Source: a bacterium | GTDB lineage: Bacteria; UBA8248 | Length of the DNA stretch: 64,000 nt | Reading direction: 5' to 3' | NCBI GenBank assembly: GCA_963692865.2 | Contig: OY843592.1 | Location: 2,112,001 to 2,176,000 of the forward strand | Shown here: one piece after another, positions 22,777 to 54,737 of the stretch | Layout of the letters: the number at the start of each line of letters is the position of its first letter | Numbering within the stretch: position 1 is the stretch's first letter | Program-made: the position numbers and the translations under genes | The notes under the pieces: generated by a model | The model's database searches: none | Seen by the model: only the letters and a program-made list of their open reading frames with translations | Told to the model about the DNA's origin: nothing

Positions 22777-22938
22777 GCTTGGTTTGGATTTTTGATCTTC
22801 AAGGTCCTGGATGATAGAGTCCACGGCGAATCCTGAAAATATCAACGGATGCTCATCGACCGGGGATTCAACTGACGCCTGACGATATCCTTCCAGGATA
22901 TTATTTGCGCCTTGGTTATGAAAAATGGAGGAGTTCTT

Positions 22939-23874
22939 GTGGCCACGCATGAACTGGATACCACCGTCGATACCTGCCATTGGGGCTATTATGACTCTGA
23001 TCTCACTCCCGTCATGACGATTGCTTCCGGCGATACGCTCGTCGTGAAGACCGAATCCGGACGCAAGGATTTTCTGAAAATACATCCCGAAAGAATCTCG
23101 GATAATCTAAGGCGAATCCTGGAGACGATGGAGCAGGGTCCCGGGGCGCACATCATGACGGGTCCGGTGGCAATCGAAGGCGCCGAACCCGGCGATGTGC
23201 TGGAGATCAAGATTCGGGAAATCAGGCCCCGCTATGACTGGGGCTACAACGGCTTCAGACCCTTGGTGGGCGGCCTGCCGGAGGATTTCCCTTATATGAG
23301 AGTGGTGATTGTCGAGGTGGACGAGGAGAGCGGAACCGGGGACTGGGGCGCAGGAGTCAAGGTGCCGCTCGGGCCATTTTTCGGAAACTTCGGGGTAGCG
23401 CCCGCTCCGGCGCTCGGGCGCGTCGCGTCGTCTCCTCCGGGAGAGTGGGGAGGAAACACGGATTGCAAGGAATTCACGGCCGGCGCGACCATCTACCTGC
23501 CGGTTTTCAACGAGGGCGCCTTGTTCTCCGTCGGCGACGGGCATGGTTGCCAGGGAGATGGGGAGGCGAACATCAACGGAATCGAGATGGGCCTCATCGG
23601 CGCTTTCGAGATGAACGTCCGCAAGGACATGAGCATCAAGACCCCGCGCGCGGAAACGGAATCCCACTACATTTTGATGGGTTTTGATCCGATTCTCGAC
23701 AACGCGGCCAAAATGGCGCTGCGCGAGACGATACAGTTTTTGGGTGAACTTCGGGGCATGAGCCCGGATGATGCGTACAGGTTGTGCAGCCTGGCGGTCG
23801 ATTTGCGCGTCACCCAAATCGTGAACGGCACCAAGGGCGTGCACGCCATGGTGCCCAAATCTTTGTTCGAATGA
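22939..23874 (+). CDS. Acetamidase/formamidase family protein (copy 1)
   Basis: HIMTGPVAIEGAEPGD, GGN.D, GDGHGCQGDGE, AY.LCSLAVDL. Confidence 0.92.
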   Translation: MATHELDTTVDTCHWGYYDSDLTPVMTIASGDTLVVKTESGRKDFLKIHPERISDNLRRILETMEQGPGAHIMTGPVAIEGAEPGDVLEIKIREIRPRYDWGYNGFRPLVGGLPEDFPYMRVVIVEVDEESGTGDWGAGVKVPLGPFFGNFGVAPAPALGRVASSPPGEWGGNTDCKEFTAGATIYLPVFNEGALFSVGDGHGCQGDGEANINGIEMGLIGAFEMNVRKDMSIKTPRAETESHYILMGFDPILDNAAKMALRETIQFLGELRGMSPDDAYRLCSLAVDLRVTQIVNGTKGVHAMVPKSLFE

Positions 23875-23899
23875 ATTTCATTTTTCGAAAGGGCCGACG

Positions 23900-24847
23900 T
23901 TGGCCGAACATGTGATCGCGCAAAACCCCGACAACATCCAGTGGGGTTATTATGACGCCGGGCTTTCTCCGGTTCTCACCGTGGCTTCGGGGGATGTGCT
24001 CGAAATTCACACCGAACCGGGGATACGGACCCTCGAATCTCCGATTCGGGAAAGAGCATCTGAAAGCCTGCGGGACATCGCCGAGCGTGGAAAGAGAGAC
24101 CTGGGAGGCCATATCCTCACGGGCCCCATCGCGGTGGAAGGGGCCGTCGGAGGAGACGGCCTGGAGGTGCGGTTTCTGGATGTCTGGCCGCGCTATGACT
24201 GGGGTTTTAACGTCATCCGCCCCTTGGCGGGTGGCTTGCCCGAGGATTTTCCGTATTCGAGAACGGTAATCGTGGAGATCGACAAGGAGGCGAATACCGG
24301 GGATTGGGGCGCTGGCGTGAAGGTGCCCTTGAGGCCGTATTTCGGTAATTTTGGCGTGGCTCCACCCAGTGATTTCGGCCGTGTTCCATCCACTCCGCCG
24401 GGAATCTGGGGCGGAAACATGGACAACAAGGAACTCATCGCGGGCTCTCGCGCCTATCTTCCCGTATTCCAGGATGGCGCTTTGTTCGCGATTGGGGACG
24501 GGCACGGTTGCCAGGGAGACGGGGAGAGTTGCCTCTCGGCACTGGAGTGCGGCATGTCCGCAAGGGTCGAACTCATCGTCCGCAAGGATTGGAGCTTGAA
24601 GATGCCCCGGGCAGAGACGCCCACGCACTATATCCTCATGGGCTTCGACCCGATTCTCGATAACGCGGCCAAGATGGCGCTCAGGGAAACGATAAATTTT
24701 CTCGGCGAGTTGCGAGGCATGAGCAGAGATGACGCATATACGCTGTGCAGCCTGGCGGTGGATTTGCGCATCACGCAGATTGTAAACGGAGTCAAAGGCG
24801 TTCACGCGATGCTGCCGAAGAGTATTTTTGATGAAGGAGTGTGTTGA
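23900..24847 (+). CDS. Acetamidase/formamidase family protein (copy 2)
   Basis: Same motifs as copy 1 (HILTGP, GGNMD, GDGHGCQGDGE). Confidence 0.92.
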   Translation: MAEHVIAQNPDNIQWGYYDAGLSPVLTVASGDVLEIHTEPGIRTLESPIRERASESLRDIAERGKRDLGGHILTGPIAVEGAVGGDGLEVRFLDVWPRYDWGFNVIRPLAGGLPEDFPYSRTVIVEIDKEANTGDWGAGVKVPLRPYFGNFGVAPPSDFGRVPSTPPGIWGGNMDNKELIAGSRAYLPVFQDGALFAIGDGHGCQGDGESCLSALECGMSARVELIVRKDWSLKMPRAETPTHYILMGFDPILDNAAKMALRETINFLGELRGMSRDDAYTLCSLAVDLRITQIVNGVKGVHAMLPKSIFDEGVC

Positions 24848-25782
24848 TGGCGACTCATGAATTGATTGCGAAACCGGATACCGTTCATTGGGGTTTTTAC
24901 GACGCCTCTCTGGAGCCGGTGATGCGCATTCGCTCCGGCGATACGCTGGAGGTTCATACCGAATCGGGCCGGGATGAATATCTGGCGGAACTCGGTGGCC
25001 GGGCATCCCAGAATTTGAGAGACATCATCGCGCAGGTTCCCCAGGAACTTGGCCCCCATATCATGACGGGTCCTGTCGCCGTAGAGGACGCGCGACCCGG
25101 AGACGTGCTCGAAGTCCGCATTCATGAAGTCAAGACGCGCTATGACTGGGGCTACAACGCCATCCGGCCGATGATGGGCGGATTGCCCGAGGATTTCCCG
25201 TATACGCGCGCCGTCATCGTGGACCTCGATCTGGAAGCGCAGACGGGGGACTGGGGCGCGGGCGTCAAGGTGCCCCTCAGGCCTTATTTCGGGAATTTCG
25301 GGGTGGCGCCCCCGCCTTCCGTGGGCCGTGTGGGGAGTTATCCCCCAAGCGCTTGGGGCGGGAATCTGGACAACAAGGAACTCATATCTGGCTCCATCGC
25401 CTATTTCCCGATTTTCAACGATGGCGCGTTGTTCTCCGTAGGCGATGGACACGGTTGCCAGGGAGACGGGGAGGCCTGCTTGACGGCCATCGAGACGGGT
25501 CTCTCGGGGACGATGGAAATTATTCTCAGAAAAGACTTGCACCTCGAAAATCCCCGCGCGGAAACCGACACGCATCATATCCTGATGGGGTTTGACCCCA
25601 TCCTTGATAACGCGGCCAAAATGGCGCTGCGCGAGACGATACGTTTTCTGGGCGAGTTGCGAGGCATGAGCCGGGATGACGCCTATACGCTTTGCAGTCT
25701 TGCCGTGGATTTACGAGTGACTCAAATCGTAAATGGGGTAAAAGGAGTTCACGCCATGTTGCCGAAATCATTATTTACGTGA
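24847..25782 (+). CDS. Acetamidase/formamidase family protein (copy 3)
   Basis: Same motifs (HIMTGP, GGNLD, GDGHGCQGDGE); TGATG stop/start overlap with copy 2. Confidence 0.92.
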   Translation: MATHELIAKPDTVHWGFYDASLEPVMRIRSGDTLEVHTESGRDEYLAELGGRASQNLRDIIAQVPQELGPHIMTGPVAVEDARPGDVLEVRIHEVKTRYDWGYNAIRPMMGGLPEDFPYTRAVIVDLDLEAQTGDWGAGVKVPLRPYFGNFGVAPPPSVGRVGSYPPSAWGGNLDNKELISGSIAYFPIFNDGALFSVGDGHGCQGDGEACLTAIETGLSGTMEIILRKDLHLENPRAETDTHHILMGFDPILDNAAKMALRETIRFLGELRGMSRDDAYTLCSLAVDLRVTQIVNGVKGVHAMLPKSLFT

Positions 25783-28455: not shown

Positions 28456-29109
28456 TTAGTGGTGGGCATGCGTCATCGCCGCCATGATTGCCTGCTCGAT
28501 TTCCTGGATCGCCCCACTGACTTCACGTCCGATGAGGTCCAGCTTGCGTATCTGATCGATACGGGGACGGATCCGATTGATCTCCTTGCCGGAAAACACA
28601 TCACGCAGAATGTTGCATGCGTCGGCAAGGCAGATAATCGCAACATCTTTGGGATCCGGCGTTTCATCCGATAGCAACACGCCGGTGATGCGCAGCTTCA
28701 CTTCGCGCTCGGCGCGGCCATCGATCGTCGGATATCTCCGCGCCCGGAAGACCCACAGGAACTTTTCCTCCTGGGATTCCAGAATGCCGGTATCGACCAA
28801 ACTGGCAAGGGACTGCTCGCGGATTTCACTGGCCTCCCGTGAAATAGTTTCAATCCAGGCTTTTGTATCCTTGGTTTCTGCGGAAGCCGCTATATTTTCG
28901 AGAATCCGATCATGCGCCGGGTGGCCAAGCGGGGTATTGTCCAGAACCATCAACTGTCCGGGGTCGGTATCGATGCGGTTTGCAAACGCCAGATCCATCA
29001 AGACAGCGCCTGCAAGCACATACCCCATCGTACTTTCGCGAATGGGCAGGAACGAACCTTTCTCGTCATCCAGCATCAGCAACAAGATTTCATCGACGAA
29101 TGTCAGCAT
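28456..29109 (-). CDS. GPP34/GOLPH3-VPS74 family protein
   Basis: DEILLL.LDD, LAGAVL.DL, KFLWVF..RRYP motifs. Confidence 0.85.
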   Translation of the reverse strand: MLTFVDEILLLMLDDEKGSFLPIRESTMGYVLAGAVLMDLAFANRIDTDPGQLMVLDNTPLGHPAHDRILENIAASAETKDTKAWIETISREASEIREQSLASLVDTGILESQEEKFLWVFRARRYPTIDGRAEREVKLRITGVLLSDETPDPKDVAIICLADACNILRDVFSGKEINRIRPRIDQIRKLDLIGREVSGAIQEIEQAIMAAMTHAHH

Positions 29110-29584: not shown

Positions 29585-30481
29585 TTACTCGTTGAGAATC
29601 AGAATAACCGTTCCGAGGAAAATGGTGCCTGCACCCGCCATGACGCGCCAGTTCATTCTCTCTTCCGATTGAAGAAAAGCCCATGATATCGCTATGGCGA
29701 ACAAAGGCCTTGATTGCGAGATGGGAAAAGCGTAGACGACGGGCGCATTCGCCAGCGCGAGATATAAGAAGGTGACGCCGAGGCTGGCTGAAAGCCCAGC
29801 CAGAACGAGAAACCCCCAGTTGCCGGGAGTCCAGTTCTTGATTTCACCGATTTTCCCTCTGCGAAAGAGAAAGGGCATAAAGGCCCCTACCGCGAAGATA
29901 TTGGAATAGAAGTTCGCCTCGTTCGGGGAGGTGAAAAACCCCACCGCCGGTCGCACAAGCACTGCGGCCGCTCCGAAAGCCAGCGCGCATCCGAGAGCCA
30001 ATCCCATTCCGACGTACGGATTTTTGCGGGATTCTCCCTTCTTCTGATTGGTGTGACTCCTGGCGATGAAGATATATCCGGCAAAAACCAGGAGGGCGCC
30101 GGTCCCGATATTGAACGTGAGCGCCTCTCCCAGAAAAGCGATGCCGAAGAATACGGCGAATATCAGATTCGTGGCGACAATGGTGCTCGTGCGCGCGGAG
30201 CCGATGTGTTGGGTGGCGGCAAAGAGCATGGTGCGGGCGAAGCAGACCCTGAAAATCCCCGCGATGGCGATGAAAGTAAGAGGCCAGCCGAAGCCCGGCC
30301 AGGGGTCTGAATAATCTCCTCTCAAAACAGAGACAATCCAGAGAACGGGCAGGCCGATGATGGCCGTGAACGCCGTGCCGGTGATGGGGTCTATGTCACG
30401 AACCGCGAAGCGACCGAAGATATCCCTTAGCGCAAGCAAAATTGCTGATATGAGCGCGTATACGGCGGCTGTCTCAAACAC
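29585..30481 (-). CDS. EamA/DMT family transporter
   Basis: About 10 hydrophobic segments in two repeats, FLGE motif; GTG start inferred. Confidence 0.85.
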   Translation of the reverse strand: MFETAAVYALISAILLALRDIFGRFAVRDIDPITGTAFTAIIGLPVLWIVSVLRGDYSDPWPGFGWPLTFIAIAGIFRVCFARTMLFAATQHIGSARTSTIVATNLIFAVFFGIAFLGEALTFNIGTGALLVFAGYIFIARSHTNQKKGESRKNPYVGMGLALGCALAFGAAAVLVRPAVGFFTSPNEANFYSNIFAVGAFMPFLFRRGKIGEIKNWTPGNWGFLVLAGLSASLGVTFLYLALANAPVVYAFPISQSRPLFAIAISWAFLQSEERMNWRVMAGAGTIFLGTVILILNE

Positions 30482-30537
30482 CCCCGCATTATAAGAAAAG
30501 TAAGTAGGCGCATCAAAGCGTTTTTGTGGCTTGAACG

Positions 30538-31512
30538 TTAAATACTTACCGCAGGGACAGGGTGCTGTGCGCGCTCGAGAATGAAATCGGCCATCAACGG
30601 CCAAGGGTCGAATCCGATCACATTCTGCGCATCGTCCACGAAATTGGAGAGCGCATTGATGTCGTAATAATATATTTCTCCATCCTTATCGCTGACCAGA
30701 TATTCGACGCCGCCGACTTCTATCCCGGCTGTTTGCATGATCTTCTCAACCGTCTCTATCACCTCTTGCGGGGGTGTGACCTTCTCAATCAATGCGTTCC
30801 TGCCGTTTACCCCGCATGCGACCTCTTCGTTGCGGCGGCAATAACTGCCAGGACAGAGATTGAAGGAATTCGGATCCACCAAAGCCAATTGAATCGCGTA
30901 AAGAAACTCACCGTTCAAAACTTCGACTCGGACAATTTGCTCTCCGCGCGGCGGGATGTATTCCTGAACGAGCGCCACACTGTCGATGCCGAAATCAATA
31001 CTCGCTGCATTCGCTGCTCGCTGGAGTTCTTCGGGCGTATCGTATTTTTGTATGCCAGCTCCACTCCCGCCGATGTTCGCCTTGGTGATGACGGGAAAGC
31101 TGAATCCCTCGGCTGCAGCCGGAGCCTGGGAGGGATGGTTTATCACCCGCGATTTCGGATGGTTGGCGCCCAAGTTCTTGAGCAGACGGGTTTGGCGTAC
31201 TTTTGAGAATTCATGAAGATAGGCTTCGTAGCCGTTGATAACGTTGGCGCCGATCGCCTTGAGATGCGCGCAATACTCGAGCGTGTAGGGAATCGCGTGG
31301 GTATGCCCACGCGCCCAGGCAGATGGACTCATGCGGTTTACAATCACAGAATAAGGCGATTGTGTTTCCGCGGGGTCGAAGCGGTGGTTGTGGGCTTCTA
31401 TTTTTTGATATGCGATATCCCGCCGGTCGAGTTCATCGAAAAGTTTTTTGAACCACTCGGGGTGTTCATAATAAATGGCGATCGGGCGGGCGGATCCGTT
31501 TTGGTCACTCAT
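30538..31512 (-). CDS. ATP-grasp ligase (RimK/glutathione synthetase-like)
   Basis: FPVITKANIGGSGAGI, LVQEYIP, YYYDINALSNF. Confidence 0.85.
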   Translation of the reverse strand: MSDQNGSARPIAIYYEHPEWFKKLFDELDRRDIAYQKIEAHNHRFDPAETQSPYSVIVNRMSPSAWARGHTHAIPYTLEYCAHLKAIGANVINGYEAYLHEFSKVRQTRLLKNLGANHPKSRVINHPSQAPAAAEGFSFPVITKANIGGSGAGIQKYDTPEELQRAANAASIDFGIDSVALVQEYIPPRGEQIVRVEVLNGEFLYAIQLALVDPNSFNLCPGSYCRRNEEVACGVNGRNALIEKVTPPQEVIETVEKIMQTAGIEVGGVEYLVSDKDGEIYYYDINALSNFVDDAQNVIGFDPWPLMADFILERAQHPVPAVSI

Positions 31513-31961
31513 GGGAGCGCATTCTCCTCGAATTTTAGGGTATCGAGCACTTGCTGGATTCGTTCGTCGACAATCTCGATCATCTTGGGATGAAAGCCGA
31601 GGTGCGGACCCAAAATGATGTCGATAGCCGGATATTTCCTCCTGCCTTCTTTAATGAAGACGGGCAAGTCTACGGCCACGTGGTTGCCCCTGAAGAGGAA
31701 ATAGGGAATGACGATGATTCTTTCGGTCCCTTCATCTACGCACGAATCGATTCCCTCGGGTATGGAGGGATGGCTGATCTCCAGAAACGCGGCCTTCAAA
31801 ATGCGATGCGGCCAAGCCTTTTGAAAATGCTCTACGACGCGGAAAAGCGCATCGTTGGCGTTTCGGGCGCGGCTGCCGTGCCCGACGAGCAAGACCGCCG
31901 TTTTTACCTGATCCCTGAGAGTCTCCTCCAGAAATTCCAATTGTTTTTCTAGGCCAGGCAT
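31509..31961 (-). CDS. Sirohydrochlorin chelatase (CbiX/SirB short form)
   Basis: VGHGSR, AFLE, PYFLF.GNH, HLG.HP. Confidence 0.9.
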   Translation of the reverse strand: MPGLEKQLEFLEETLRDQVKTAVLLVGHGSRARNANDALFRVVEHFQKAWPHRILKAAFLEISHPSIPEGIDSCVDEGTERIIVIPYFLFRGNHVAVDLPVFIKEGRRKYPAIDIILGPHLGFHPKMIEIVDERIQQVLDTLKFEENALP

Positions 31962-33754
31962 TCGCCTTCTCCTCTCTCCAGCACGTATTGCCTGTTCTGA
32001 CTCCAGTCGATGAACAGATCGGAATTGGGCTCACCATTGAATTGACCTGCAAGATGAAACTCTCCCAACAATTCTTCGAAGGAAGCGTTGCCCACGCGGC
32101 CCAAAAACTCATTGAAACGCTCGCCCTCGTTTCTGTGTTCCTGATAGTGAGACAACATCTTCTTGAGCGCAGTGGGAACGCGCTTTGCAGGAATCCGAAC
32201 CTGGATGCGCTTGCCGATACGGATCTCTCCATCAGTGGTTTCGTATTGCCCGCCGAGGAAAATTTCATAAGCCGGCAACATCGCGCCGTTCGCCCTGAGC
32301 GTTCCCCCGTGAAAGCCGATGTTCGCGATGTGATGCTGGCCGCATGAATTCGGGCAACCGCTCATCTTGATGTGCATCTCCCGCGTGAGCGGGTCCTGAT
32401 CGACCTCTTGGAGTGTTTCACGAATGGCGTTCGCCAGACCCATGGAGGAGGTGATGCCGAGCTTGCAAGAATCCGTTCCCGGGCAGGAGACCACGTCGGA
32501 TATCTCACGAGCGCCATTTTCGGCGAGTCCGATGCGCTGGAGTTCTTTCCAGAGAGGATAAAGTTCTCCTTCACGCACCCACCGGAGCACGAGGTTTTGC
32601 TCGAAGCTCGTTCTTGCGCGTCCTCTCGCGAATCGTCGGGCGAGGTCGGCCAGGGCGAAGAACTGATCTGTTTGGATATTCCCCAGTGGGAGTTTCACCT
32701 CGACAGCGAAATAGCCTTCTTGCTTCTGTGGGGAGACGTTCGTTTTTCTCCAGGCGTTATAATCGGCCGAGTCGCCATTCGGGCTCGCGCCCGCTCCGTT
32801 CAAGGTGTTCAAGACGGGTGGAGCGTCGGCTTCTTCATCGTCTTTCCAAAGATAGGGTTCGGGGTTCACGGGTTCTTTAGCCCAGTCTTTTTTGAGTTCC
32901 TCTTCGACGCGTTCGCGCAGTCCGTCTATTCCAATCCAACTCACGAGGAACTTGATGCGCGCCTTGAAGCGGGATTTCCTGAGTTCAGCGGCCTGATCGA
33001 ATACCCGAATAAGGGCTTCACTCACCCTGAGGAAATCGGACACAGGCACGAACTCGTAAAGCACCTCGGCTGTACGCGCGAAAGTGGCGAGTCCGCCCCC
33101 GACGAGCACCTTGAAGCCATGCACGGAAATCCCTTCCATCTCCTTGATGACCGGGATGAAACCGATGTCGTGAATTCCGCCGACCACGCAGTCCGAAGCG
33201 CAACTGGAGAACGCCACTTTGAATTTGCGCGGCAAATCCTGGGTAAAGTCCTTCCGAACGAAGTAACGCGCGAATGCGCCCGCGTAGGGGGTGGCGTCGA
33301 AAACCTGATCCTTGCAAACGCCCGCATAGGGACATCCCGTGACGTTTCTCACGCAATTTCCGCATGCTTCCCGCGTCGTAAGTCCCACTTCACCCAGAAG
33401 TCTCAAGACATCGGCTGCCTGGTCGAGAGGGACGAAGTGAAACTGCACGTTTTCCCGTGTCGTTACATGGCCTTTCCCCAGTGGGGCATAATCGCGAGAT
33501 ACGCGCCCGAGAGCTTCGAGTTGAGAAGCGCTCAGACCCCCAAAAGGCATTTTCACGCGCACCATCTGCACGTCCGCTTGGCGCTGGCCGTATACGCCGC
33601 GCCTTAAGCGGTAAGGGAGGAACTCGCCGTTATCGAGTTCACCCTTTCGGAATCTGGTGGCTTGTGTTTCAAAATCATCGAATTCTTCGGGAATCACCGG
33701 AATGACGCCCAATGTTTCCCGAGACAGTGGTTTTCGTGATTCTTCGTGCATCAC
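31949..33754 (-). CDS. Ferredoxin-dependent sulfite/nitrite reductase (siroheme-[4Fe-4S])
   Basis: GVYGQRQ, HVTTRENVQFH, LPRKFK, CPGTDSC and SGCPNSCGQH ligands. Confidence 0.92.
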   Translation of the reverse strand: MMHEESRKPLSRETLGVIPVIPEEFDDFETQATRFRKGELDNGEFLPYRLRRGVYGQRQADVQMVRVKMPFGGLSASQLEALGRVSRDYAPLGKGHVTTRENVQFHFVPLDQAADVLRLLGEVGLTTREACGNCVRNVTGCPYAGVCKDQVFDATPYAGAFARYFVRKDFTQDLPRKFKVAFSSCASDCVVGGIHDIGFIPVIKEMEGISVHGFKVLVGGGLATFARTAEVLYEFVPVSDFLRVSEALIRVFDQAAELRKSRFKARIKFLVSWIGIDGLRERVEEELKKDWAKEPVNPEPYLWKDDEEADAPPVLNTLNGAGASPNGDSADYNAWRKTNVSPQKQEGYFAVEVKLPLGNIQTDQFFALADLARRFARGRARTSFEQNLVLRWVREGELYPLWKELQRIGLAENGAREISDVVSCPGTDSCKLGITSSMGLANAIRETLQEVDQDPLTREMHIKMSGCPNSCGQHHIANIGFHGGTLRANGAMLPAYEIFLGGQYETTDGEIRIGKRIQVRIPAKRVPTALKKMLSHYQEHRNEGERFNEFLGRVGNASFEELLGEFHLAGQFNGEPNSDLFIDWSQNRQYVLERGEGECLA

Positions 33755-33823
33755 ATGCTCCTCATGTGAATTGTTCTATATACATATCGGATGATGAACA
33801 GGGGCCGGACCGAAACCCGGCAT

Positions 33824-34633
33824 TTACGAAATGACTTGGTTCAAGAATGCTTCCGGCAAACAGCGCCAGGAGATTTCCTGGCTCTCATCGGCCTCGAACC
33901 AGACGAGCTCTTCAAGATCGGCGACGGGGCCCACGAGAAAAACGGCGGGTGGGGATATTTCTTCGCGTTGTGCAAGGCTTGATGCTTCCGCCAAAAGGCA
34001 GCGGTAGGCTGATTGCCTGTTCGTGGTTCCGTTTTCAATGATGGCGGTGGGCGTGTCTTTCGCCATGCCGTTTTCGATAAGTGCGGCTGATATACGCCCA
34101 ATAGAGCGTGCGCCCATTAGAAATACAAGCGTTCCTCTGTCTTTCGCCAAATGCGCGTAGTTTACCTGTGTTTCCGGTTTGCTGGGGTCTTCGTGGGCCG
34201 TTACGACCGTGAACGATGAGGCGAGATTTCGGTGTGTGACGGGTATTCCTGCATAGGCGGGCACGGCCAATGCGGAACTGACGCCCGGTATGATCTCGAA
34301 TTGAACACCGGCTTCGACCAGAGCTTGCGCTTCTTCGCCCCCACGCCCGAATACGAAAGGGTCTCCGCCTTTCAGACGCACCACCTGAAAACCGCTAAGT
34401 GCGAAATGGACGAGAGATTCATTGATGTCGCCTTGGTTCATGGTATGGCGGCCGCTGGATTTTCCCGCATCAATGAATTGACAGCTTTCCGGACAAAGCG
34501 CAAGAATCTCGGGATTTACGAGGCGATCGTATATCACCACGTCCGCGTTTGATAAAGCTTTCGCCGCCTTGAGTGTGAGCAAGTCCGGGTCACCGGGGCC
34601 TGCACCCACGATCTGCACTTTTCCTTGATACAT
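33824..34633 (-). CDS. cobA: Uroporphyrinogen-III C-methyltransferase
   Basis: VGAGPGDPDLLT, RLKGGDPFVFGRGGEE, AGIPVTHR. Confidence 0.95.
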   Translation of the reverse strand: MYQGKVQIVGAGPGDPDLLTLKAAKALSNADVVIYDRLVNPEILALCPESCQFIDAGKSSGRHTMNQGDINESLVHFALSGFQVVRLKGGDPFVFGRGGEEAQALVEAGVQFEIIPGVSSALAVPAYAGIPVTHRNLASSFTVVTAHEDPSKPETQVNYAHLAKDRGTLVFLMGARSIGRISAALIENGMAKDTPTAIIENGTTNRQSAYRCLLAEASSLAQREEISPPAVFLVGPVADLEELVWFEADESQEISWRCLPEAFLNQVIS

Positions 34634-34807
34634 GAGATATTCCTGCCTTAAGAAATAGTTTTCCTTTTATTGTTAAGTAAATTACTTGACTATTTTGGAA
34701 AATATTCCGATTTCATACTTTTGTCAACCCGAAGCGGCGTATATTCTTGAGAAGTTTTGCTTTGGAATGATTTCAGGGTGTCCAACACTACAAAGAAGGT
34801 GCTGATC

Positions 34808-35407
34808 ATGAGTGAAAGCTCCAACCGTTTTGAAGATGCCTTGCGCCTCATCGATGAAGCGAATTCCGAGGATCCGAATACCGAGAAATTCGAGGGCGGG
34901 AACTACCCCAAAGAGCTTTTGTATTCGATGAGAATGACGAAATGGCTCGAAACCATAGAGCCCGACGCCTCAGAAGCCCTTCGTCTGGCGGTGCGGAGCC
35001 AACACATACGCCGGTGGGAAATTCCTCGCTCGAGTTATTCTCTGGATCGGAAGGGGTATCATCAATGGCGCACCCGCCTGTACGACTATCATGGGGAGAA
35101 GGCCGCCGAGATACTTGGGAAGGCGGGTTACGATGAGGAGACGATAGCCCGCGTGCGGATGCTGCTGAAAAAACAGGGTTTGAAGACCAACCCGGAAACC
35201 CGGACGCTCGAGGACGTCGCCTGCCTGGTGTTTCTGGAGAGCTATTTCTGGGATTTCTCACGCCTGCATGACGAGGAGAAAATCATCGACATCTTGCGGA
35301 AGACTTGGGCAAAAATGTCCCCGCGCGGGCAAGAAGCCGCCAGGGAGATTTCGCTGAACGCGGGCGCGGAGGCGCTGCTGAACCAGGCGCTCGCGCCTGA
35401 AAACTAG
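34808..35407 (+). CDS. DUF4202 domain protein
   Basis: IDEANSEDP, ELLYS.RM, QHIRRWEIPR, LEDVACLVFLE, KTWAKMS. Confidence 0.88.
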   Translation: MSESSNRFEDALRLIDEANSEDPNTEKFEGGNYPKELLYSMRMTKWLETIEPDASEALRLAVRSQHIRRWEIPRSSYSLDRKGYHQWRTRLYDYHGEKAAEILGKAGYDEETIARVRMLLKKQGLKTNPETRTLEDVACLVFLESYFWDFSRLHDEEKIIDILRKTWAKMSPRGQEAAREISLNAGAEALLNQALAPEN

Positions 35408-35516
35408 CGGAAAACGGCTGTTTTCAAGTAGCCCTGCGCTGCTTTTTCATCTGCTTTCTTGTGGTGTATGATTGGCGCGCAATGTTTCTTTTGGACTCAT
35501 TATCAGGGAGAAAATC

Positions 35517-36176
35517 ATGAACCTCACCATGTGGAACTGCTACGTCTGACCCTACGCCTACAGAGCCATGGAGTGGCTCGTTCGCCTTCAGGAGAAAAGA
35601 AGCGATCTGAAAGTGGACTACAAGGCCTTCGTGCTCGAGCAGGCGAATTTCGGCCCGGCGCGCGGCGAGGACTGGAGGGCCTGGGAGGACAAGACCTTCC
35701 CGAGCCGGGATCTCCCCCCGCATCAGGCGGCCAAGTGCGCGGCTCTTCAGGGCGAGACGCAGTTCGACAAGTACCACGTGGCGCTCCACCGGGCGAGGCA
35801 CAGGGACGGCAAGGACATCACCAGCGAACTGGTCCTGCGCGATATCGCCGTGGAAGTCGGCCTCGACGTCGCCCGCTGGGAGGAGGACATGAAGAGCGGC
35901 GCCACGATTCCCCTCATCGCGCAGGAGCATGAGGACGCGGCGGAGCAGGGCGTCTTCGGCGTTCCCACGCTCGATTTCGGGGAGGGCAAGCCCGTTTTCG
36001 TGAAGCTCGAAGAGGGCGACTGGGAGAACGAGGGCGACGAGCAGGGCCTCCTGGACGCCGTGCGGGCCACATCGGCCGAGCGGCCCTGGCTGCTGGAACT
36101 CAAGACGCCCGAATCCGCCAAGCGCAGTTCCGCCTCGGCGAAAAAGTACGAGAAATACGGCGTGAAGTCGAGGTAA
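35517..36176 (+). CDS. DsbA-like thioredoxin-fold selenoprotein (WNCYV-U-PYAY)
   Basis: ATG 35517 after GGGAG gives MNLTMWNCYV-TGA(35547-35549)-PYAYRAMEWL, in frame with the track ORF (GVFGVPTL). The TGA aligns with the Cys of the family CP motif. Confidence 0.85.
35563..35579 (+). promoter_or_regulatory. Putative bacterial SECIS hairpin
   Basis: GAGCCAT-GGA-GTGGCTC starting 13 nt after the UGA. Confidence 0.65.
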
Positions 36177-36203
36177 CCGCCGCAAACGAGAGGTTTCCGC
36201 CTC

Positions 36204-36557
36204 ATGAGCGCCATGAAAGACAAGGCCCACCCCGTCGACCTCACGGTGGACAAGCCCGCCCGCGAGTTTCGCGTCGAGTGGGCGAGCGGGGAGAAGAGCG
36301 CCTACGGCTTCGATTATCTGGCCGCTCTCTGCCCGTGCGCGAATTGCAAGGAGGAGCGCAAGGCGCGCGAGAAGAACCCCCTCGCCGTCCTCTCGGGGCC
36401 GAGTGGGCCGACTGAGCTTGAAAACGTGGAGATGGTGGGACGCTACGCCCTCAACTTCATCTGGCGGGGCGGGTGCGGCGCCGGCATCTATTCGTTCGAT
36501 TATCTCTACGAAATCGCCCCCGGGCGCGCCGAAAGTTCAGGGGAAGGAGAGGGCTGA
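36204..36557 (+). CDS. DUF971 (gamma-butyrobetaine hydroxylase N-terminal-like) protein
   Basis: LCPCANC, VGRYAL...W, GIYSFDYL. Confidence 0.88.
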   Translation: MSAMKDKAHPVDLTVDKPAREFRVEWASGEKSAYGFDYLAALCPCANCKEERKAREKNPLAVLSGPSGPTELENVEMVGRYALNFIWRGGCGAGIYSFDYLYEIAPGRAESSGEGEG

Positions 36558-36560
36558 ACC

Positions 36561-36704
36561 TTGGAGACCGATGCGCCGAAGCCGATGGATGAAAAGCATG
36601 AAACCCCGCCGGCGCAGGCCGCCTGCCCCACGTGAGTGAGCGGGTGGTTCCACGCCGTGGCGCGGGTTTTGGGCTGGATGAAGAGGAAGGTTCTGAAACC
36701 CTGA
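36561..36704 (+). CDS. Putative micro-selenoprotein with CPTU (CxxU) motif
   Basis: GAAGGAG RBS then TTG 36561 (or ATG 36585): METDAPKPMDEKHETPPAQAACPT-TGA(36633-36635)-VSGWFHAVARVLGWMKRKVLKP-TGA; hairpin CCACGC-CGTG-GCGCGG at 36650-36665. Confidence 0.55.
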
Positions 36705-36707
36705 AAC

Positions 36708-37070
36708 CTAGCGGTTGATGAGCAGGTTGGCGCCCGCGGCTATCACCGCCACGCCCACGATTCTCTTGAGCGTCAGCGCCGGGAAGTTCTGGAGCAGATG
36801 GGCCCCGACGGCGCCGCCGACGATGGCCCCGACGCTCAGGTACGCCGCATGGTTCCAGACGATGAGCCCGCCCCGCAAGTTCTCGAACGAGGCGACCAGC
36901 GAGTTGAACAGGTAGGCGAGAATCGAGACCGCCACCGCCTGCTGCGGCGTGAGCGCGGGGATGAGGAACAGCGTCGGCACCACGATGATGCCCCAGCCCA
37001 CGCCGGTGGCCGCGTTCAAGGTGCCCGCGATGGCGCCCAGAATCAAAAGTCCCGCCCCCATCCAGTCCAA
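36708..37070 (-). CDS. Half-length TauE/SafE (TSUP) family membrane protein
   Basis: GAIAGTLNAATGVGWGIIVVP, AVAVS, GAIVGGAVGA; AAGGAGG RBS before TTG 37070. Confidence 0.78.
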   Translation of the reverse strand: MDWMGAGLLILGAIAGTLNAATGVGWGIIVVPTLFLIPALTPQQAVAVSILAYLFNSLVASFENLRGGLIVWNHAAYLSVGAIVGGAVGAHLLQNFPALTLKRIVGVAVIAAGANLLINR

Positions 37071-37547
37071 AACAGCCTCCTTTTCAGATAACGCCTTTAT
37101 TTTCAATCAGTTGAATTTTCAGAAATTTATCGAAAAACGTCGTGAATTTATACATATTTATCCAATTTTTCAGGAATTCCGCTGGGCTGCCTGGCGCTCG
37201 CGGGCTTCGCCCGGAACCCCCCGCCGGGCGCTTCCTCGTCCGCTCCTGACGCCTTCCCGAGAGCGCCGCCGCGGAAACCCCTCTCCGGAACGCCCGGCGC
37301 GGATGCTCCCCGCGGGCGTCCTCGTATTCTCGCCGCTTCGCCTCATCACCCGTCCTCCCGATGCTCTCCCGAAAACGCCCCCGCCCGCAAGCCCGGAACC
37401 CGGCCCGGACGGCGGGCCCCGGCAGACAGGGTAGCGAACCCCGCCCCCCGCGCCAAACGCGCAAATGCGGGGAAATGCGCGGGCGGTGGGGCCGAGCCCC
37501 GGCGATGGGCGAGCGTTTACCAGAGGGGAAGAGGAGGAATCCGTCAT

Positions 37548-38869
37548 GCAAATCGCAATGAACCCGCAGGGGCCGTTCGCGAACGGCCCTCCCCGGTGGA
37601 GAAACGGGCGCTTCACGAAGCGCCCCTACGGTCGTCTTTCAAGAGGATACTGTAGGGGTCGCATATCATGCGACCCGGCTTTTTCGTCCCTCCGGCGATG
37701 GGCCGCATGATATGTCAGACATATATGTCTGACCTACGGCGGGATCCCGACCGGCCTGCGAGGGTTTTTTCAACAACCCCGTATGCGGCCCCTGCACACC
37801 CCCTCGCCTGCCTACCGTAGGGGCGGACCCGTGTGTCCGCCCGTCGGTCCGATACAGGACAGGCGCGGAGGCCTCGGACAGGCGCAGGAGCGCCTGTCTC
37901 TACAAAACCTCGCAAATCGCAATGAACCCGCAGGGGCCGTTCGCGAACGGCCCTCCCCGGTGGAGAAACGGGCGCTTCACGAAGCGCCCCTACGGTCGTC
38001 TTTCAAGGGGATACTGTAGGGGTCGCATATCATGCGGCCCTCATATCGAACGGCGATGGGCCGCATATTATGTCAGACATATATGTCTGACATACGGCGG
38101 GATCCCGACCGGGCCTGCGAGGGTTTTTTCAACAACCCCGTATGCGGCCCCTGCACACCCCCTCGCCTGCCTACCGTAGGGGCGGACCCGTGTGTCCGCC
38201 CGTCGGTCCGATACAGGACAGGCGCGGAGATCTCGGACAGGCGCAGGAGCGCCTGTCTCTACAAAGCCTCGCAAATCGCAATGAACCCGCAGGGGCCGTT
38301 CGCGAACGGTCCTCCCCGGTGGAGAAACGGGCGCTTCACGAAGCGCCCCTACGGTCGTCTTTCAAGAGGATACTGTAGGGGTCGCATATCATGCGACCCG
38401 GCTTTTTCGTCCCTCCGGCGATGGGCCGCATGGTATGTCAGACATATATGTCTGACATACGGCGGGATCCCGACCGGGCCTGCGAGGGTTTTTTCAACAA
38501 CCCCGTATGCGGCCCCTGCACACCCCTCGCCTGCCTACTGTAGGGGCGGACCCGTGTGTCCGCCCGTCGGTCCGATACAGGGCAGGCGCGGAGGCCTCGG
38601 ACAGGCGCAGGAGCGCCTGTCTCTACAAAGCCTCGCAAATCGTAATGAAACCGCAGGGGCCGTTCGCGAACGGCCCTCCCCGGTGGAGAAACGGGCGCTT
38701 CACGAAGCGCCCCTACAGTCGTCTTTCAAGAGGATACTGTAGGGGTCGCATATCATGCGGCCCTCATATCGAACGGCGATGGGCCGCATGATATGTCAGA
38801 CATATATGTCTGACCTACGGCGGGATCCCGACCGGGCCTGCGAGGGTTTTTTCAACAACCCCGTATGCG
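37548..38869. repeat. Tandem array of ~360-bp REP-rich units (A-B-A-B, 723-bp higher-order period)
   Basis: Units start at 37548, 37912, 38271 and 38635 (GCAAATCGCAATGAACCCGCAGGGG...); near-identical; each carries several GTAG-type palindromes. Confidence 0.95.
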
Positions 38870-38967
38870 CCCCTTCCAACTCGCTCTTGCTTGACCGGCC
38901 CGCTTAGAGCCGCGCCGGAAAATGTGCGATATTCTCATCCTTCATTCCATTGCCGGGGAGAGACGAC

Positions 38968-39516
38968 ATGACCGAAACCGGAAAAACGCCGGGGCCTGAG
39001 TCGCTGGAGGCGCGGCTGCGCGACGTCGAGGACAGGCTCGAAATCTACAACCTCATCGCCTCGCACCCGCCGAGCGCGGACACCGGCGCGGACGATTACA
39101 CCCGCGCCGTCTTCACCGAAGACGGCGTCTTCGACCGGGGCGAGAGCCTCGACTTCACCGTCGGCAATGAGGCCATCGCCGCCATCGCCTTGAGATCCGA
39201 GCATCAGGAGGCGATCCGCGGCGGCCTCGCCCACTTCGCCGGGCTGCCGCACGTCGAGATCGACGGCGATTCGGCCTGGGTCACCTCCTACCTGCAGCTC
39301 GTCCACCCCGACGCCGAGGGCGCCGAGCGGGAACTGCCGAACCACGGCGTCTCGACCGGCTACCGCATCCACCGCGTCCTCGCCAACCGCTGGGAGCTTG
39401 TGCGCGCGCCGGAGGGCTGGAAGATCAGGAGCCGCAAGCTGCGCCCGCTCGACGGCTCTGCGCCCGCGCGCGACATCCTCTCCCGCGCCCTGGCGCGCCG
39501 CCGCTCCGCCGGGTGA
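38968..39516 (+). CDS. SnoaL-like/NTF2 family protein
   Basis: ARLRDVEDRLEIYNLIASHPPSAD, FTEDG, GWKIRSR. Confidence 0.85.
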   Translation: MTETGKTPGPESLEARLRDVEDRLEIYNLIASHPPSADTGADDYTRAVFTEDGVFDRGESLDFTVGNEAIAAIALRSEHQEAIRGGLAHFAGLPHVEIDGDSAWVTSYLQLVHPDAEGAERELPNHGVSTGYRIHRVLANRWELVRAPEGWKIRSRKLRPLDGSAPARDILSRALARRRSAG

Positions 39517-39587
39517 CGCGCAAAGCTCGCAGCCGCGCTTGCTGATGTGAGGGTGAGTGGGATGGAAGCGGATAAAGCCCCGCTCGC

Positions 39588-39953
39588 TCAACCGTTGCGC
39601 GAGTCGGGCGGAGCGGAGGTTCGGCGGATGAGTTCCCGGAGCGCCTCCATGTTTTCCCGATGCAGTTCGCTTTGCGCCTCGCGTTGGGCGTTCAGCGCCG
39701 CCATGGTTTCCTGGTGCCGGCTGTCCAGCGCCTTCATGGTTTCCCGGTGCTGGGCGTCACGGTGTTTCGCGGCCTGGCGCATGATGTAGAGGCCGCACGC
39801 GATCAAGGCGCATTGCGCGGCCCCGACGAGGGCGGCGACCCATACGGCGGCTCGCTGGACTGCAAGCGAGGCTTGTTGAAGGGCGAGGGTGGATTGCTGC
39901 AGCGTGAGCATGTCTTGCTGCACGGCGAGGCTTGCGGCTTCGTATTCCGTCAT
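39588..39953 (-). CDS. Hypothetical single-TM coiled-coil protein (MTEYE...ALRELIRRTS)
   Basis: GGAG RBS; one hydrophobic helix, 11-aa HxETMxAL repeats; similar to 42825-43286. Confidence 0.7.
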   Translation of the reverse strand: MTEYEAASLAVQQDMLTLQQSTLALQQASLAVQRAAVWVAALVGAAQCALIACGLYIMRQAAKHRDAQHRETMKALDSRHQETMAALNAQREAQSELHRENMEALRELIRRTSAPPDSRNG

Positions 39954-40045
39954 TCGCTTTTCTCCAGTCTGCCTCGTGGGGAAGCCAGTTCGGTCAGTTT
40001 CGCCCGCGGCGGAGGATAAGTCAAAAGGTCGAACCCGACCGGGGA

Positions 40046-40242
40046 GGGGGTGTTGAAAAAGCCGGAGAGAGACAATTTGTTTGTAGGTGACAACCTCTCC
40101 CTGGGGTTGTCCCACACATACCATGCGACCCTGATTTTCGTCCCTCCACAACGGGCCGCATGATATGCGGCCCCTACATACAAAAACCGTTCCTCCCCGG
40201 TCGCGTAAAACACTCGTTCATCAGGACTTTTTCAACAGCCCC
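40046..40242. mobile_element. MITE-like element with 16-bp TIRs and GGGGA target duplication, carrying REP hairpins
   Basis: GGGGGTGTTGAAAAAG ... CTTTTTCAACAGCCCC (15/16 inverted match); GGGGA on both sides (40041-40045, 40243-40247). Confidence 0.7.
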
Positions 40243-40269
40243 GGGGAATGAGGGTTCGACGCGAGCGGG

Positions 40270-40680
40270 GGTGGTTGTTGAAAAACCCTGATTTCGCGAT
40301 TCGGCGAATGCAACCGACCGGGGAAGGGGGGTTCGACGGTTTTGATCGTCATTCCGGTGTCGGAGCCGACCGCGGAGGGAGGGTTCGACGGAATCCAGAG
40401 CCGATGTGAATTTCGAGCCGCAGGACGACCATAAAAAACAAGAATGCGAAAAGCCAAATTCAAAAGCAAAGTCCCTGGATTCCGGCTTTCGCCGGAATGA
40501 CGGCGTGCAATCTCGATTGCAGGGGCCGTTCGAGAACGGCCCTTGTCCGGAGAAGAAACGGGCGCTTCCCGAAGCGCCCCTACATTTCGTTTTTGTATGT
40601 CAGACATATATGTCCGACATACCATGCGACCCTGATTTTCGTCCCTCCACAACGGGCCGCATGATATGCGGCCCCTACGG
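40270..40680. repeat. Cluster of CGTC-type and GTAG-type REP hairpins with one MITE-like end
   Basis: CGTCATTCCG...CGGAATCCAG / CTGGATTCCGGCTTTCGCCGGAATGACG pair; GGGGCCGTTCGAGAACGGCCC; a ~62-bp stretch at 40617-40678 identical to 40116-40177. Confidence 0.85.
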
Positions 40681-40869
40681 ATCCCCCTGTTCCCGGCCCG
40701 AAACCAACCCCCCCCCCCCCGCGTGGGGAACGATCAGAACCAACCGGGCGCGCCGCTTTTCCTTTTTTCACCGCGAAACCCGGCTCCCTCAAACTTTCCG
40801 CGCCCTCGGTTTTTGGTGTATACAAGAGCTTTGCGTTCCCTGTATGAAAGATTCGCCAAGGAGAACACC

Positions 40870-42126
40870 GTGGGCCGGACGATGGCGGAGAAAATCCTCT
40901 CCGCGCATTCAGGATGCGAGGCGCGGGCGGGCGACCTGGTAATCGCGGAGCTCGACTACGTCATGGCGGGCGACGCCAAGGGGCCGAAGGCGGTCGACAT
41001 CTTCCGCGAGGCGGGCTTCGCGTTCCGGCTGGACCCTGAGAAGACCGATTTCGTCATCGACCATTTCGTGCCCGCCCAGGACGTTCTCTGGGCGAACCAC
41101 CACAGGAAGCTGCGAATCTTCGGCGCCGAATACGGCGTGAAGGTCTTCGAGCCGGGCGCGGGCGTGTGCCACACCGTGGTGACGGAAGAAGGCCGCGTGG
41201 GGCCGGGCGCGCTCGCCGTCGGCGGCGACAGCCACGTCTGCACCTACGGGGCGCTGGGCGCGATGGGCGTGGCCGTCGAGAGCGTGGAGATTGCCTCGGC
41301 CTACGCCACCGGGAAGCTGTGGTTCAAGACGCCCGAGAGCGTCCGCGTGGAGTTCACCGGCGCGCTCGCGCGCGGGGTGTTCTCGAAGGACATGGAGCTC
41401 GTCCTCGCGCGCGAGATGGGCGAAAACGGCGCGAACTACATGGCGGTGGAATACGGCGGAGAGGCGCTTGCCGATCTCTCGATGGACGCGCGCTTCACGG
41501 TCGCGAACATGTCGGTCGACATGGGGGCGAAGACGGGAATCATGGAGGTGGACGATAAGGCGCTTGAATGGGCGCGGGCGCGCGGCGCGCCGGTCGAGGG
41601 GGCGGTGGCGCCGGACCCCGACGCCGTCTACGCGCGGAGAATCCATCTCGACGTCTCCTCGCTCACGCCCGTCGTGGCCGCTCCGCCCGCCACGGGGAAC
41701 GCGCACCCGGTCGAGGACTACGCGGGCCTGCCCGTCCAGCAGGCGTTCGTGGGCACGTGCACGAACGGGCGGCTGGAAGACCTCGAGATTGCGGCGAAGG
41801 TCGTGCGCGGGAAGAAGACAGCGCCCGGCGTGCGCTTCTACGTCGCGCCCACGAGCAAGCGGATCTACGAGGCCGCCTTGGCGAGCGGGGCCATCGGCGC
41901 CCTGGCCGAAGCGGGGGCCGCCGTGCTCACCGCCGCGTGCGGGCCGTGCGCCTCGATGACGGGGAACGGCTGCCTCGCCGACGGGGAGCGCGCCATATCC
42001 TCCGCCAACCGGAATTTTCCGGGCAGGCTCGGGAGCAAGGAGGCCGAGATATTCCTGGGCTCCCCCGCCACGGTGGCGGCGAGCGCGCTGACGGGCCGCA
42101 TCACCGACCCCAGGGAATTTCTGTAG
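40870..42126 (+). CDS. leuC: 3-isopropylmalate dehydratase/homoaconitase large subunit (LeuC/HacA type)
   Basis: TMAEKIL, IDH, GVCH, DSH.CTYGA, GTCTNGR, CGPC, NRNFPGR, SPAT.AASA. Confidence 0.85.
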   Translation: MGRTMAEKILSAHSGCEARAGDLVIAELDYVMAGDAKGPKAVDIFREAGFAFRLDPEKTDFVIDHFVPAQDVLWANHHRKLRIFGAEYGVKVFEPGAGVCHTVVTEEGRVGPGALAVGGDSHVCTYGALGAMGVAVESVEIASAYATGKLWFKTPESVRVEFTGALARGVFSKDMELVLAREMGENGANYMAVEYGGEALADLSMDARFTVANMSVDMGAKTGIMEVDDKALEWARARGAPVEGAVAPDPDAVYARRIHLDVSSLTPVVAAPPATGNAHPVEDYAGLPVQQAFVGTCTNGRLEDLEIAAKVVRGKKTAPGVRFYVAPTSKRIYEAALASGAIGALAEAGAAVLTAACGPCASMTGNGCLADGERAISSANRNFPGRLGSKEAEIFLGSPATVAASALTGRITDPREFL

Positions 42127-43315: not shown

Positions 43316-43689
43316 GCTGCTGAATAAGTCCCCCAAAGGGGTTGTGACCCCCACCAATCGAGAATGTTCACCGTCATTCCGGCGTCATTGCTGTTTCCGT
43401 TGTAGGGGTCGCATATCATGCGACCCTGCCTTTCGCTCATGCCGGTTACGGGCCGCATGATATGCGGCCCCTACACCTCGAATACGGAATGAAGAAACAC
43501 GGCAATCGCCCGGAGCGGTACCGCGCGTCTGTTTCATATGATACGAGCACCTTTGTAGAGCGACTGTCGGGGCCGTTCGCGAACGGCCCCGACAAACGGA
43601 ATTCCGACCGAGGGCGATTTTTTCAACAGGCCCCTCAAGGGGGGAGTGAAATTCGGTGCGCTCCTTCTGTGGACTTTTCCAACAGCCCC
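43316..43689. mobile_element. Degenerate MITE-like element filled with REP hairpins
   Basis: GCTGCTGAATAAGTCC ... GGACTTTTCCAACAGC ends; internal GTAGGGGTCGCATATCATGCGACCC / GGGCCGCATGATATGCGGCCCCTAC pair; extra end motif at ~43618-43633. Confidence 0.6.
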
Positions 43690-54471: not shown

Positions 54472-54737
54472 GGGTTTGTTGAAAAAGTCCCCGAGGCGGT
54501 GGGGGTGCGATGATTTTGTAGGGGCGGACCTGCGTGTCCGCCCTTTGCGTTCGCCGTGTTTTATCATCGCGTTATCGTTATAAGACGGATGCCTGAAGGC
54601 GGGCGGACACGCAGGTCCGCCCCTACGGTCGTCATTCGAATGGTTGTGCAGGGGTCGCATATGGCCTGTTGAATAACCTCCTCGCCGGGGGGGTGTCCGT
54701 TTTTACCCCCTTATCAGGGTACTTTTTCACCACCCCC
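54472..54737. mobile_element. MITE-like element with an internal GTAG REP pair
   Basis: GGGTTTGTTGAAAAAGT ... ACTTTTTCACCACCCC ends; GTAGGGGCGGACCTGCGTGTCCGCCC and its inverted copy inside. Confidence 0.6.

Follow-up and report, generated by a model that had tools for sequence, protein, structure and literature searches.

Why should a gene for a DUF971 protein stand between two genes that each appear to need an in-frame UGA codon read as selenocysteine (Sec)? The question is raised by three plus-strand genes at positions 35517 to 36704 of the 64,000-nucleotide (nt) stretch of contig OY843592.1 analyzed here (the 64-kb window; all coordinates are positions in it unless a related locus is named). 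In order, the genes encode a DsbA-like protein (Sec-DsbA), a DUF971 protein and a short peptide with a C-x-x-U motif, where U stands for Sec. We give a probability of roughly 0.45 to the reading that this three-gene operon, which is limited to Nitrospinota-type lineages, is a cytoplasmic selenium-based redox module that would act on the metal site of the DUF971 protein or on iron-sulfur (Fe-S) clients.

A 27-nt gap separates the Sec-DsbA gene from the DUF971 gene, and a 3-nt gap separates the latter from the peptide open reading frame (ORF). Another 3 nt further on lies the stop codon of a minus-strand gene for a half-size TauE protein. An earlier interpretation made from the DNA letters by themselves (the sequence-only reading) had proposed these four genes, both in-frame TGAs and the gaps of 27, 3 and 3 nt, and all are found where it had placed them. 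Only its end coordinate needs to be moved: 37070 is an internal ATG on the minus strand, and the TauE ORF extends to a TTG at 37106 on that strand. The features are as follows.

35517..36176, plus strand: Sec-DsbA gene (ATG at 35517, stop TAA at 36174-36176; 219 amino acids (aa) with the TGA read as Sec)
35547..35549, plus strand: in-frame UGA at codon 11 of Sec-DsbA, read as Sec (all 37 of the close loci introduced below have a TGA here)
35563..35579, plus strand: hairpin 1, resembling a selenocysteine insertion sequence (SECIS), with a 7-base-pair (bp) stem GAGCCAU / GUGGCUC and a GGA loop, beginning 16 nt past the UGA
36204..36557, plus strand: DUF971 / GBBH-like_N protein gene (117 aa; all-Cys site C43, C45, C48, C91)
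36561..36704, plus strand: putative selenopeptide gene (TTG start, 47 aa, stop TGA at 36702-36704)
36633..36635, plus strand: in-frame UGA at peptide codon 25, read as Sec, in C22-P-T-U25 (from codon comparison across loci)
36651..36666, plus strand: SECIS-like hairpin 2 (5' arm CACGC, loop CGUGGC, 3' arm GCGGG), 18-33 nt past the UGA
36708..37106, minus strand: half-size TauE/TSUP membrane protein gene (132 aa, one repeat of four transmembrane segments (TMS); Pfam TauE E-value (E) = 1.2e-20, profile positions 1-110 of 237)

Related loci were collected in one scan of species-representative genomes with a 10-sequence alignment, which returned 60 loci, all from metagenome-assembled genomes (MAGs). 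The nearest of them bear the labels Nitrospinota, Nitrospinaceae or Tectomicrobia. Thirty-seven of the 60 (L001-L037, the close loci) carry the C-x-x-U-P-x-A type of Sec-DsbA found in the window. The other 23 form a second clade with a classical U-P-W-C motif, which is visible in 21 of them; in the remaining two the retrieved stretch starts just past the motif. By tblastn and hidden Markov model searches, a DUF971 gene lies directly 3' of the Sec-DsbA gene in 34 of the 37 close loci (L001-L033 and L037), with gaps of 12-40 nt where the start was cleanly called. It is absent next to DsbA in the 26 other loci, namely L034-L036 and all 23 of the U-P-W-C clade. The peptide is present in 25 of the 33 assessable DsbA-DUF971 loci (L025, which ends 77 nt past the DUF971 stop, was not judged). 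Conservation of gene order was the check proposed together with the module, and on these counts the three same-strand genes form a conserved unit.

Both in-frame TGAs are, on this comparison, beyond what chance would produce, because the codons and the residues that flank them are conserved in related genomes. The comparative evidence is strong for the DsbA gene and good, if incomplete, for the peptide, and the earlier claim that two genes need UGA recoding is sustained to that extent.

Sec-DsbA is almost certainly a genuine selenoprotein of the known DsbA-like kind, because the TGA and its flanks are conserved, the hairpin is conserved and Cys homologues align at U. The protein begins MNLTMWNCYVUPYAYR, with the active site C8-Y-V-U11-P-Y-A, and no signal peptide was found in it. 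It matches Pfam DSBA (PF01323) at E = 5.2e-18 (65.9 bits, cutoff 25.6). In all 37 close loci, at 50-95% identity, the TGA lies within C-Y-[VI]-U-P-[YF]-A-Y-R, and the start codon 10 codons upstream is conserved. Hairpin 1 keeps 7 of 7 pairs in all 22 sequences folded (of 38 in hand), the closing pair being CG in 13, UA in 5 and UG in 4. An Rfam scan of 30000-42000 gave two sub-threshold chance matches and no SECIS family. A protein search with the UGA-read sequence returned 146 relatives. The closest, down to about 40% identity, are annotated from M19 onward only, as expected of gene callers that stop at the TGA. Distant homologues (about 33-36% identity) are full-length and read D-F-L-C-P-W-A-Y-R-G, with the Cys aligned to U11.

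DsbA-like selenoproteins have been catalogued since 2005 (PMC1088965 and the table of a 2026 review, PMC13188914, in the parts available). Shared with them are the DSBA Pfam domain, Sec with a Pro after it where the N-terminal active-site Cys would stand, and a SECIS hairpin close downstream. The forms listed in the available part of the review are form 1, with UxxC, and form 2, with DxxUP, the latter a crotonase-family fusion (PMC13188914), whereas Sec-DsbA here has C-x-x-U-P-x-A and carries no such fusion. One structural novelty of the protein, judged from the alignments, is that the resolving Cys at +3 is replaced by Ala, which is found in 37 of 37 close loci, and that an invariant Cys occupies -3; the UxxC motif of form 1 is thus absent. 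The best sequence match among solved structures is 7DK9 ('DSBA domain-containing protein', E = 8.9e-14), in which the Cys of F-L-C-P-Y-A-W-R-G aligns with U11. A C-P-Y-A-type single-Cys motif and a conserved FGxPT loop are common to both proteins, but 7DK9 uses Cys, not Sec. Our literature search found no paper describing this PDB entry. FrnE (PDB 5CNW), a cytoplasmic disulfide isomerase, is a weak match (E = 0.005) and likewise uses Cys, not Sec.

The middle gene had been credited with CPCxxC and a further Cys, and both are confirmed (C43-P-C45-A-N-C48 and C91). Its product matches DUF971 (PF06155) at E = 3e-17 and the sequence of 3LUU at E = 5.1e-9. The AlphaFold2 (AF2) model (pLDDT, the predicted local distance difference test, of 75) resembles 3LUU, 2L6P and the N-terminal domain of BBOX1, with Foldseek template-modelling (TM) scores of 0.65/0.84 for 3LUU and 0.61 for BBOX1. 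The Pfam match, the predicted fold and the CxCxxC motif are common to this protein and the known forms, which also include the C-terminal domain of plant HCF101. It differs from them in the fourth ligand. The metal site of the family is CxCxxC plus His, and BBOX1 binds zinc through Cys3His. In copies linked to Sec-DsbA, CxCxxC is present and the fourth ligand is Cys instead of His (CCCC) in 34 of 35, the His occurring in L032 only. Among the best 150 representatives of the DUF971 family, 137 have CCCH and two have CCCC.

A word-based search with the DUF971 protein found 32 relatives only, and an exhaustive profile search found 2477 members of the family. Because just three representatives lie at E<=1e-30, the DUF971 linked to Sec-DsbA is, by this measure, a narrow subfamily, one that always adjoins Sec-DsbA. 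The single linked copy with the family His (L032, 6686-7057) has an extra C-P-C-E-E-C at its C-terminus, and the motif of the L032 peptide is C-H-F-U. No DsbA-DUF971 fusion of the Rosetta stone kind is apparent from protein length, domain scans not having been run: the best 150 representatives are 92-195 aa long, except for a single protein of 465 aa, whose C-terminus holds the domain. The presence of the fourth Cys shows no correlation with that of the peptide; Cys4 copies also occur in loci that lack it.

The peptide of the window has an acidic, Pro-rich N-terminus, the motif C22-P-T-U25 (AACPTU VSGWFHAVARVLGWMKRKVLKP) and a cationic amphipathic tail that ends in W-M-K-R-K. An AAGGAG at 36544-36549 lies 11 nt 5' of its TTG start. 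With the TGA read as U, the same design recurs across clades, wider than tblastn reaches, in peptides of 46-71 aa: the N-terminus is variable and acidic or Pro-rich, C-x-x-U comes next, and a hydrophobic run leads on to W-x-[KRG]-[RK]. A profile of the core matches the window and 25 loci (L001-L013, L015-L024, L026 and L032), always directly after DUF971. Elsewhere in the 60 loci it has no match, nor has it any elsewhere in the 64-kb window, which holds no paralogue. No Pfam or NCBIfam model matches the peptide, six divergent orthologues searched at E<=10 included; the NCBIfam library includes recent selenoprotein models named in the available part of the 2026 review table (PMC13188914).

Several small CxxU selenoproteins resemble the peptide in being short and in having a Cys/Sec redox motif as their sole obvious feature (glycine reductase selenoprotein A, SelW-like proteins, the CC/Se-motif family and KCU-star/DUF466). 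Such proteins often partner a larger enzyme, according to the part of PMC13188914 available. The peptide differs from them in matching none of their models, in its smaller size, in lacking a predicted globular fold and in the place of its motif, which heads a cationic amphipathic helix.

Two other interpretations of this ORF were rejected. One is a transmembrane anchor: Kyte-Doolittle means over 19 residues reach 0.9-1.5 at best, and the amphipathic tail (moment 0.36-0.62) carries a charge of +4 to +6. The other is a DUF971-peptide fusion made by read-through of the DUF971 stop. That stop (36555-36563 region) is a TGA in frame with the peptide ORF in the window and in nine of its 13 closest relatives, but it is TAA in the other four of these 14 sequences, and other lineages have the peptide in other frames. 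A separate feature of this position is seen in L014 (7216-10005) and L037 (7076-9871), where an ORF of about 930 aa, DNA-methyltransferase-like as assigned by eye, lies directly after DUF971 in place of the peptide and TauE. This suggests an insertion hotspot after DUF971.

Is the peptide translated? We consider its translation as a selenopeptide likely on the comparative evidence. Counted from the DUF971 stop, the first in-frame start falls between -4 and +12 nt in 25 of the 26 sequences, in frames that vary relative to DUF971 (GTGA and ATGA overlaps, +2, +3, +6, +10 and +12), and the frame remains open through an N-terminal part whose length varies widely from lineage to lineage. Codons for Cys, Pro and Thr vary synonymously (TGC/TGT, CCC/CCG, ACC/ACG) or the motif shifts to C-S-T-U or C-H-F-U, while C and U stay. 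Fourteen aligned orthologues share C-x-x-U, an invariant Trp (W39) and a near-invariant basic residue at 42.

A hairpin is found at the same distance from the peptide UGA in all clades, with G/U in the loop and with unrelated stem sequences. These are CNCGC / GCGGG with the loop CGUGGC in the group of the window, CUCCUUUC / GGAAGGGG with the loop GGUCU in L017-L020 and L023, and CCUUCUG / CAGAAGG with the loop GUU in L021, L022 and L026. In 21 of the 26 sequences, 92.4% of the cells are paired, compared with 80.1% in shuffles (none of 500 reaches 92.4%) and 36-73% when the position is slid. The consensus has five pairs, two of which change on both sides between clades; the element overlaps coding constraint and is weak in the window.

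In the mechanism that we propose, the first gene would supply a monothiol-type DsbA-like oxidoreductase in which U11 replaces the nucleophilic Cys. U11 would attack an oxidized sulfur (disulfide, persulfide or sulfenate), and C8 would resolve the adduct as an intramolecular Se-S bond. The second gene would supply a DUF971 protein with a Cys4 metal site instead of the Cys3His site of the family, and Sec-DsbA would keep this all-Cys site reduced or re-form it. Alternatively, the target may be the Cys ligands of Fe-S or siroheme client proteins served by DUF971. The product of the third gene, translationally coupled to the second and with C-x-x-U heading its cationic amphipathic helix, would bind to DUF971 or DsbA and serve there as a small redox partner or shuttle. 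In this scheme we infer the contacts between the proteins, the direction of electron flow and the Fe-S or metal-site target. The link from DUF971 to Fe-S chemistry drawn in the sequence-only reading agrees with one mutant-fitness study, which in the part available points to a role in Fe-S maintenance (bioRxiv 10.1101/072470). The thiol/selenol relay for Fe-S, metal or S/Se handling put forward in that earlier reading is one that the three proteins may form.

The half-size TauE had been seen as the partner on which the module converges, and this part of the proposal we do not retain. The gene is on the opposite strand and absent in seven of 24 assessable loci; because it is convergent it is not co-transcribed with the other three, and in terms of gene order TauE is a frequent neighbor, not a core part. 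Where a peptide is followed by at least 600 nt of sequence, TauE is present in 17 of 24 cases (the window, L001-L012, L016 (twice), L018, L019 and L024, with fragments only in L010). Other genes, including RidA and aconitase-family genes, replace it in L013, L015, L020-L022, L026 and L032. In close relatives such as L001, about 134 nt lie between the stops of the peptide and TauE genes, and the 3-nt spacing is particular to the window. TSUP proteins average about 280 aa with 4+4 TMS, according to the part of PMC7176098 available, whereas this one has 132 aa and a single repeat. It lacks the full architecture of 7-9 TMS (4+4) and would have to pair with itself. In L016 (7134-8479) TauE is duplicated in tandem, the copies being 77% and 71% identical to that of the window, with fragments of a duplicated DUF971 gene between them.

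Upstream of the three genes are the following.

35444..35472, plus strand: promoter-like site TTTTCA-17-TATGAT (consensus scan only; weak)
34757..35407, plus strand: DUF4202 protein gene (E = 1.6e-76; same-strand neighbor, on the upstream side in 23 of 37 close loci)
31509..34633, minus strand: divergent siroheme operon, conserved context (domain matches), composed of the next three genes
33824-34633, minus strand: CobA-type methylase
31949-33754, minus strand: NIR_SIR sulfite/nitrite reductase (nearby in 25 of 37 close loci)
31509-31961, minus strand: CbiX chelatase

A terminator-like hairpin (35426-35444) lies 3' of the DUF4202 gene and precedes the promoter-like site. Together the two weakly suggest that the three genes have their own transcription unit. 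The membership of DUF4202 in the module is uncertain, and a literature search for DUF4202 found no papers.

Several observations weigh against the redox-module reading. All of the loci fall within one phylum-level group, so the conserved order partly reflects shared ancestry, and since all are related, inherited synteny is not separable from selection. The Fe-S link comes from the cofitness of CCCH-type DUF971 proteins in distant Proteobacteria (bioRxiv 10.1101/072470, in the part available). No tRNA-Sec or sel genes were found in the 64-kb window, where the tRNAs seen are tRNA-Val and tRNA-Leu. The peptide is missing in eight of the 33 assessable loci (L014, L027-L031, L033 and L037) and is thus dispensable. 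In the 14 closest sequences its ORF has no third-position bias: variable sites at the three codon positions number 8/9/11 in 25 core codons and 14/14/20 in 20 N-terminal codons, as compared with 25/12/110 in DsbA and 13/9/61 in DUF971. Hairpin 2 of the window has four pairs and an A-G mismatch, and the window sequence folded alone prefers another stem at +7 to +26. L015 has Trp in place of the peptide Cys (W-P-T-U), and the 60 loci yielded no homologue of the peptide with Cys in place of Sec, no broad search having been made. Some of these points would fit an arrangement in which only Sec-DsbA and DUF971 form a module and the peptide is untranslated, its conserved stretch being an RNA element (a 3'-end hairpin, weak terminator or regulatory structure) with an incidental CPTU. 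The absences and the lack of third-position bias favor this, as do the missing protein family match, the G-UUUU after hairpin 2 in the close group of the window, and the count of U in 26 of 26 sequences, which is partly built in because the pattern search required [CW]xxU. Against it stand the starts that abut or overlap the DUF971 stop in varying frames, the frame kept open over variable N-termini, the retention of C and U while the middle residues change (CPTU, CSTU, CHFU) and codons change synonymously, and the conservation of W39 and the basic residue 42 across clades. In the other clades no U-run follows the hairpin, and a terminator scan was blank there. We regard an untranslated peptide as rather unlikely.

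The neighboring genes invite a different account, an extension of the sequence-only reading that we find doubtful: a sulfur/selenium relay in which the three genes would work with TauE and the siroheme sulfite/nitrite reductase, passing on or detoxifying species derived from sulfite, sulfide or selenite. TauE is indeed convergent in 17 of the 24 assessable loci, across three sub-lineages, with copies in L018 and L019 that are only 41-43% identical to that of the window, and most loci have the CobA/NIR_SIR/CbiX operon and DUF4202 on the upstream side (reductase in 25 of 37, DUF4202 in 23 of 37). However, the opposite strand of TauE, its absence from the seven loci named above and its fragmented state in L010 argue against the relay; so does the retention of DsbA-DUF971 in L031-L033, where neither the reductase nor DUF4202 is found within 6 kb, and the synteny of related loci may be inherited. 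Still another possibility is that the target of the peptide and Sec-DsbA is a soft metal or metalloid (Hg, Cu, Cd or As), which they would bind or detoxify, with CxxU as the ligand and the Cys4 DUF971 as a metal carrier. Several catalogued metal-handling selenoproteins have CxxU-, UxxC- or UxxU-type motifs (PMC13188914, available part), and DUF971 mutants were cobalt-sensitive in one study (bioRxiv 10.1101/072470, available part). The neighbors scanned include no metal-resistance genes (mer, cop, ars or czc), and the peptide matches no MerT, MerP or CopZ model; we consider this role very improbable.

Selenium use by the organism is also indicated by a second candidate gene in the window.

8491-9123, minus strand: second DsbA-like gene, of the classical UxxC type, S-D-Y-T-U-P-F-C (TGA at 9072-9070; Pfam DSBA E = 1.1e-26)

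Under code 11 this gene appears as a 185-aa ORF at 8491-9048 only. Its hairpin, GCCACC-GUG-GGUGGC, has 6 bp and lies 18 nt past the UGA. The available part of the BSepDB paper (PMC13326102) credits a related MAG with 54 selenoprotein genes, a number that puts it among the richest bacteria.

Other features of the window lie outside the three-gene unit. A 364-bp tandem unit, palindrome-rich, is repeated 3.7 times with 93% matches at 37548-38874. Partial dispersed copies occur at 40117-40167, 40519-40668, 43401-43464 and 54600-54688, and the related loci hold 29-nt traces only. Three successive plus-strand ORFs of 313-320 aa (22912-25782) each match the acetamidase/formamidase family (FmdA_AmdA, E = 1e-32 to 1e-37) in its C-terminal part. 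Also present is a minus-strand bacterial ORF (28456-29109) that strongly matches the GPP34 (Golgi phosphoprotein 3) family (E = 3.3e-48).

In the literature searched, the operon appears to be undescribed, built from known kinds of parts, and it probably includes one new small selenoprotein family. We found no paper there that treats DUF971 together with a selenoprotein, and the 119 families tabulated in the 2026 review, in the part available (PMC13188914), include neither DUF971 nor a comparable peptide. The description of the locus as an undescribed system therefore holds for the operon and the peptide, which appear undescribed, and not for the DsbA part, which varies the motif of a selenoprotein family already known. 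The peptide, if real, adds a family to the selenoprotein catalogue. Very short proteins with Sec in mid-sequence are systematically missed by gene callers and by Sec/Cys homology searches. The C-x-x-U-P-x-A site of Sec-DsbA, in which the resolving Cys has moved from +3 to -3, is relevant to the evolution of Sec active sites.

To our knowledge DUF971, although widespread (in bacteria, plant HCF101 and human carnitine-pathway enzymes), has no known biochemical activity. An operon that ties a Cys4 DUF971 to two selenoproteins leads to a concrete hypothesis, namely that the metal/thiol site of DUF971 is the object of redox chemistry, and it could offer the first biochemical handle on DUF971 function. 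A bolder version, which we hold to be unlikely, is that the CPTU peptide founds a class of mini-selenoproteins (46-71 residues, DUF971-coupled) whose selenol acts with the monothiol Sec of DsbA, the operon being a two-selenium system that redox-switches or repairs the all-Cys site of DUF971. If that were true, it would at last show the biochemical role of a domain whose carriers include the human proteins BBOX1 and TMLHE and the plant protein HCF101.

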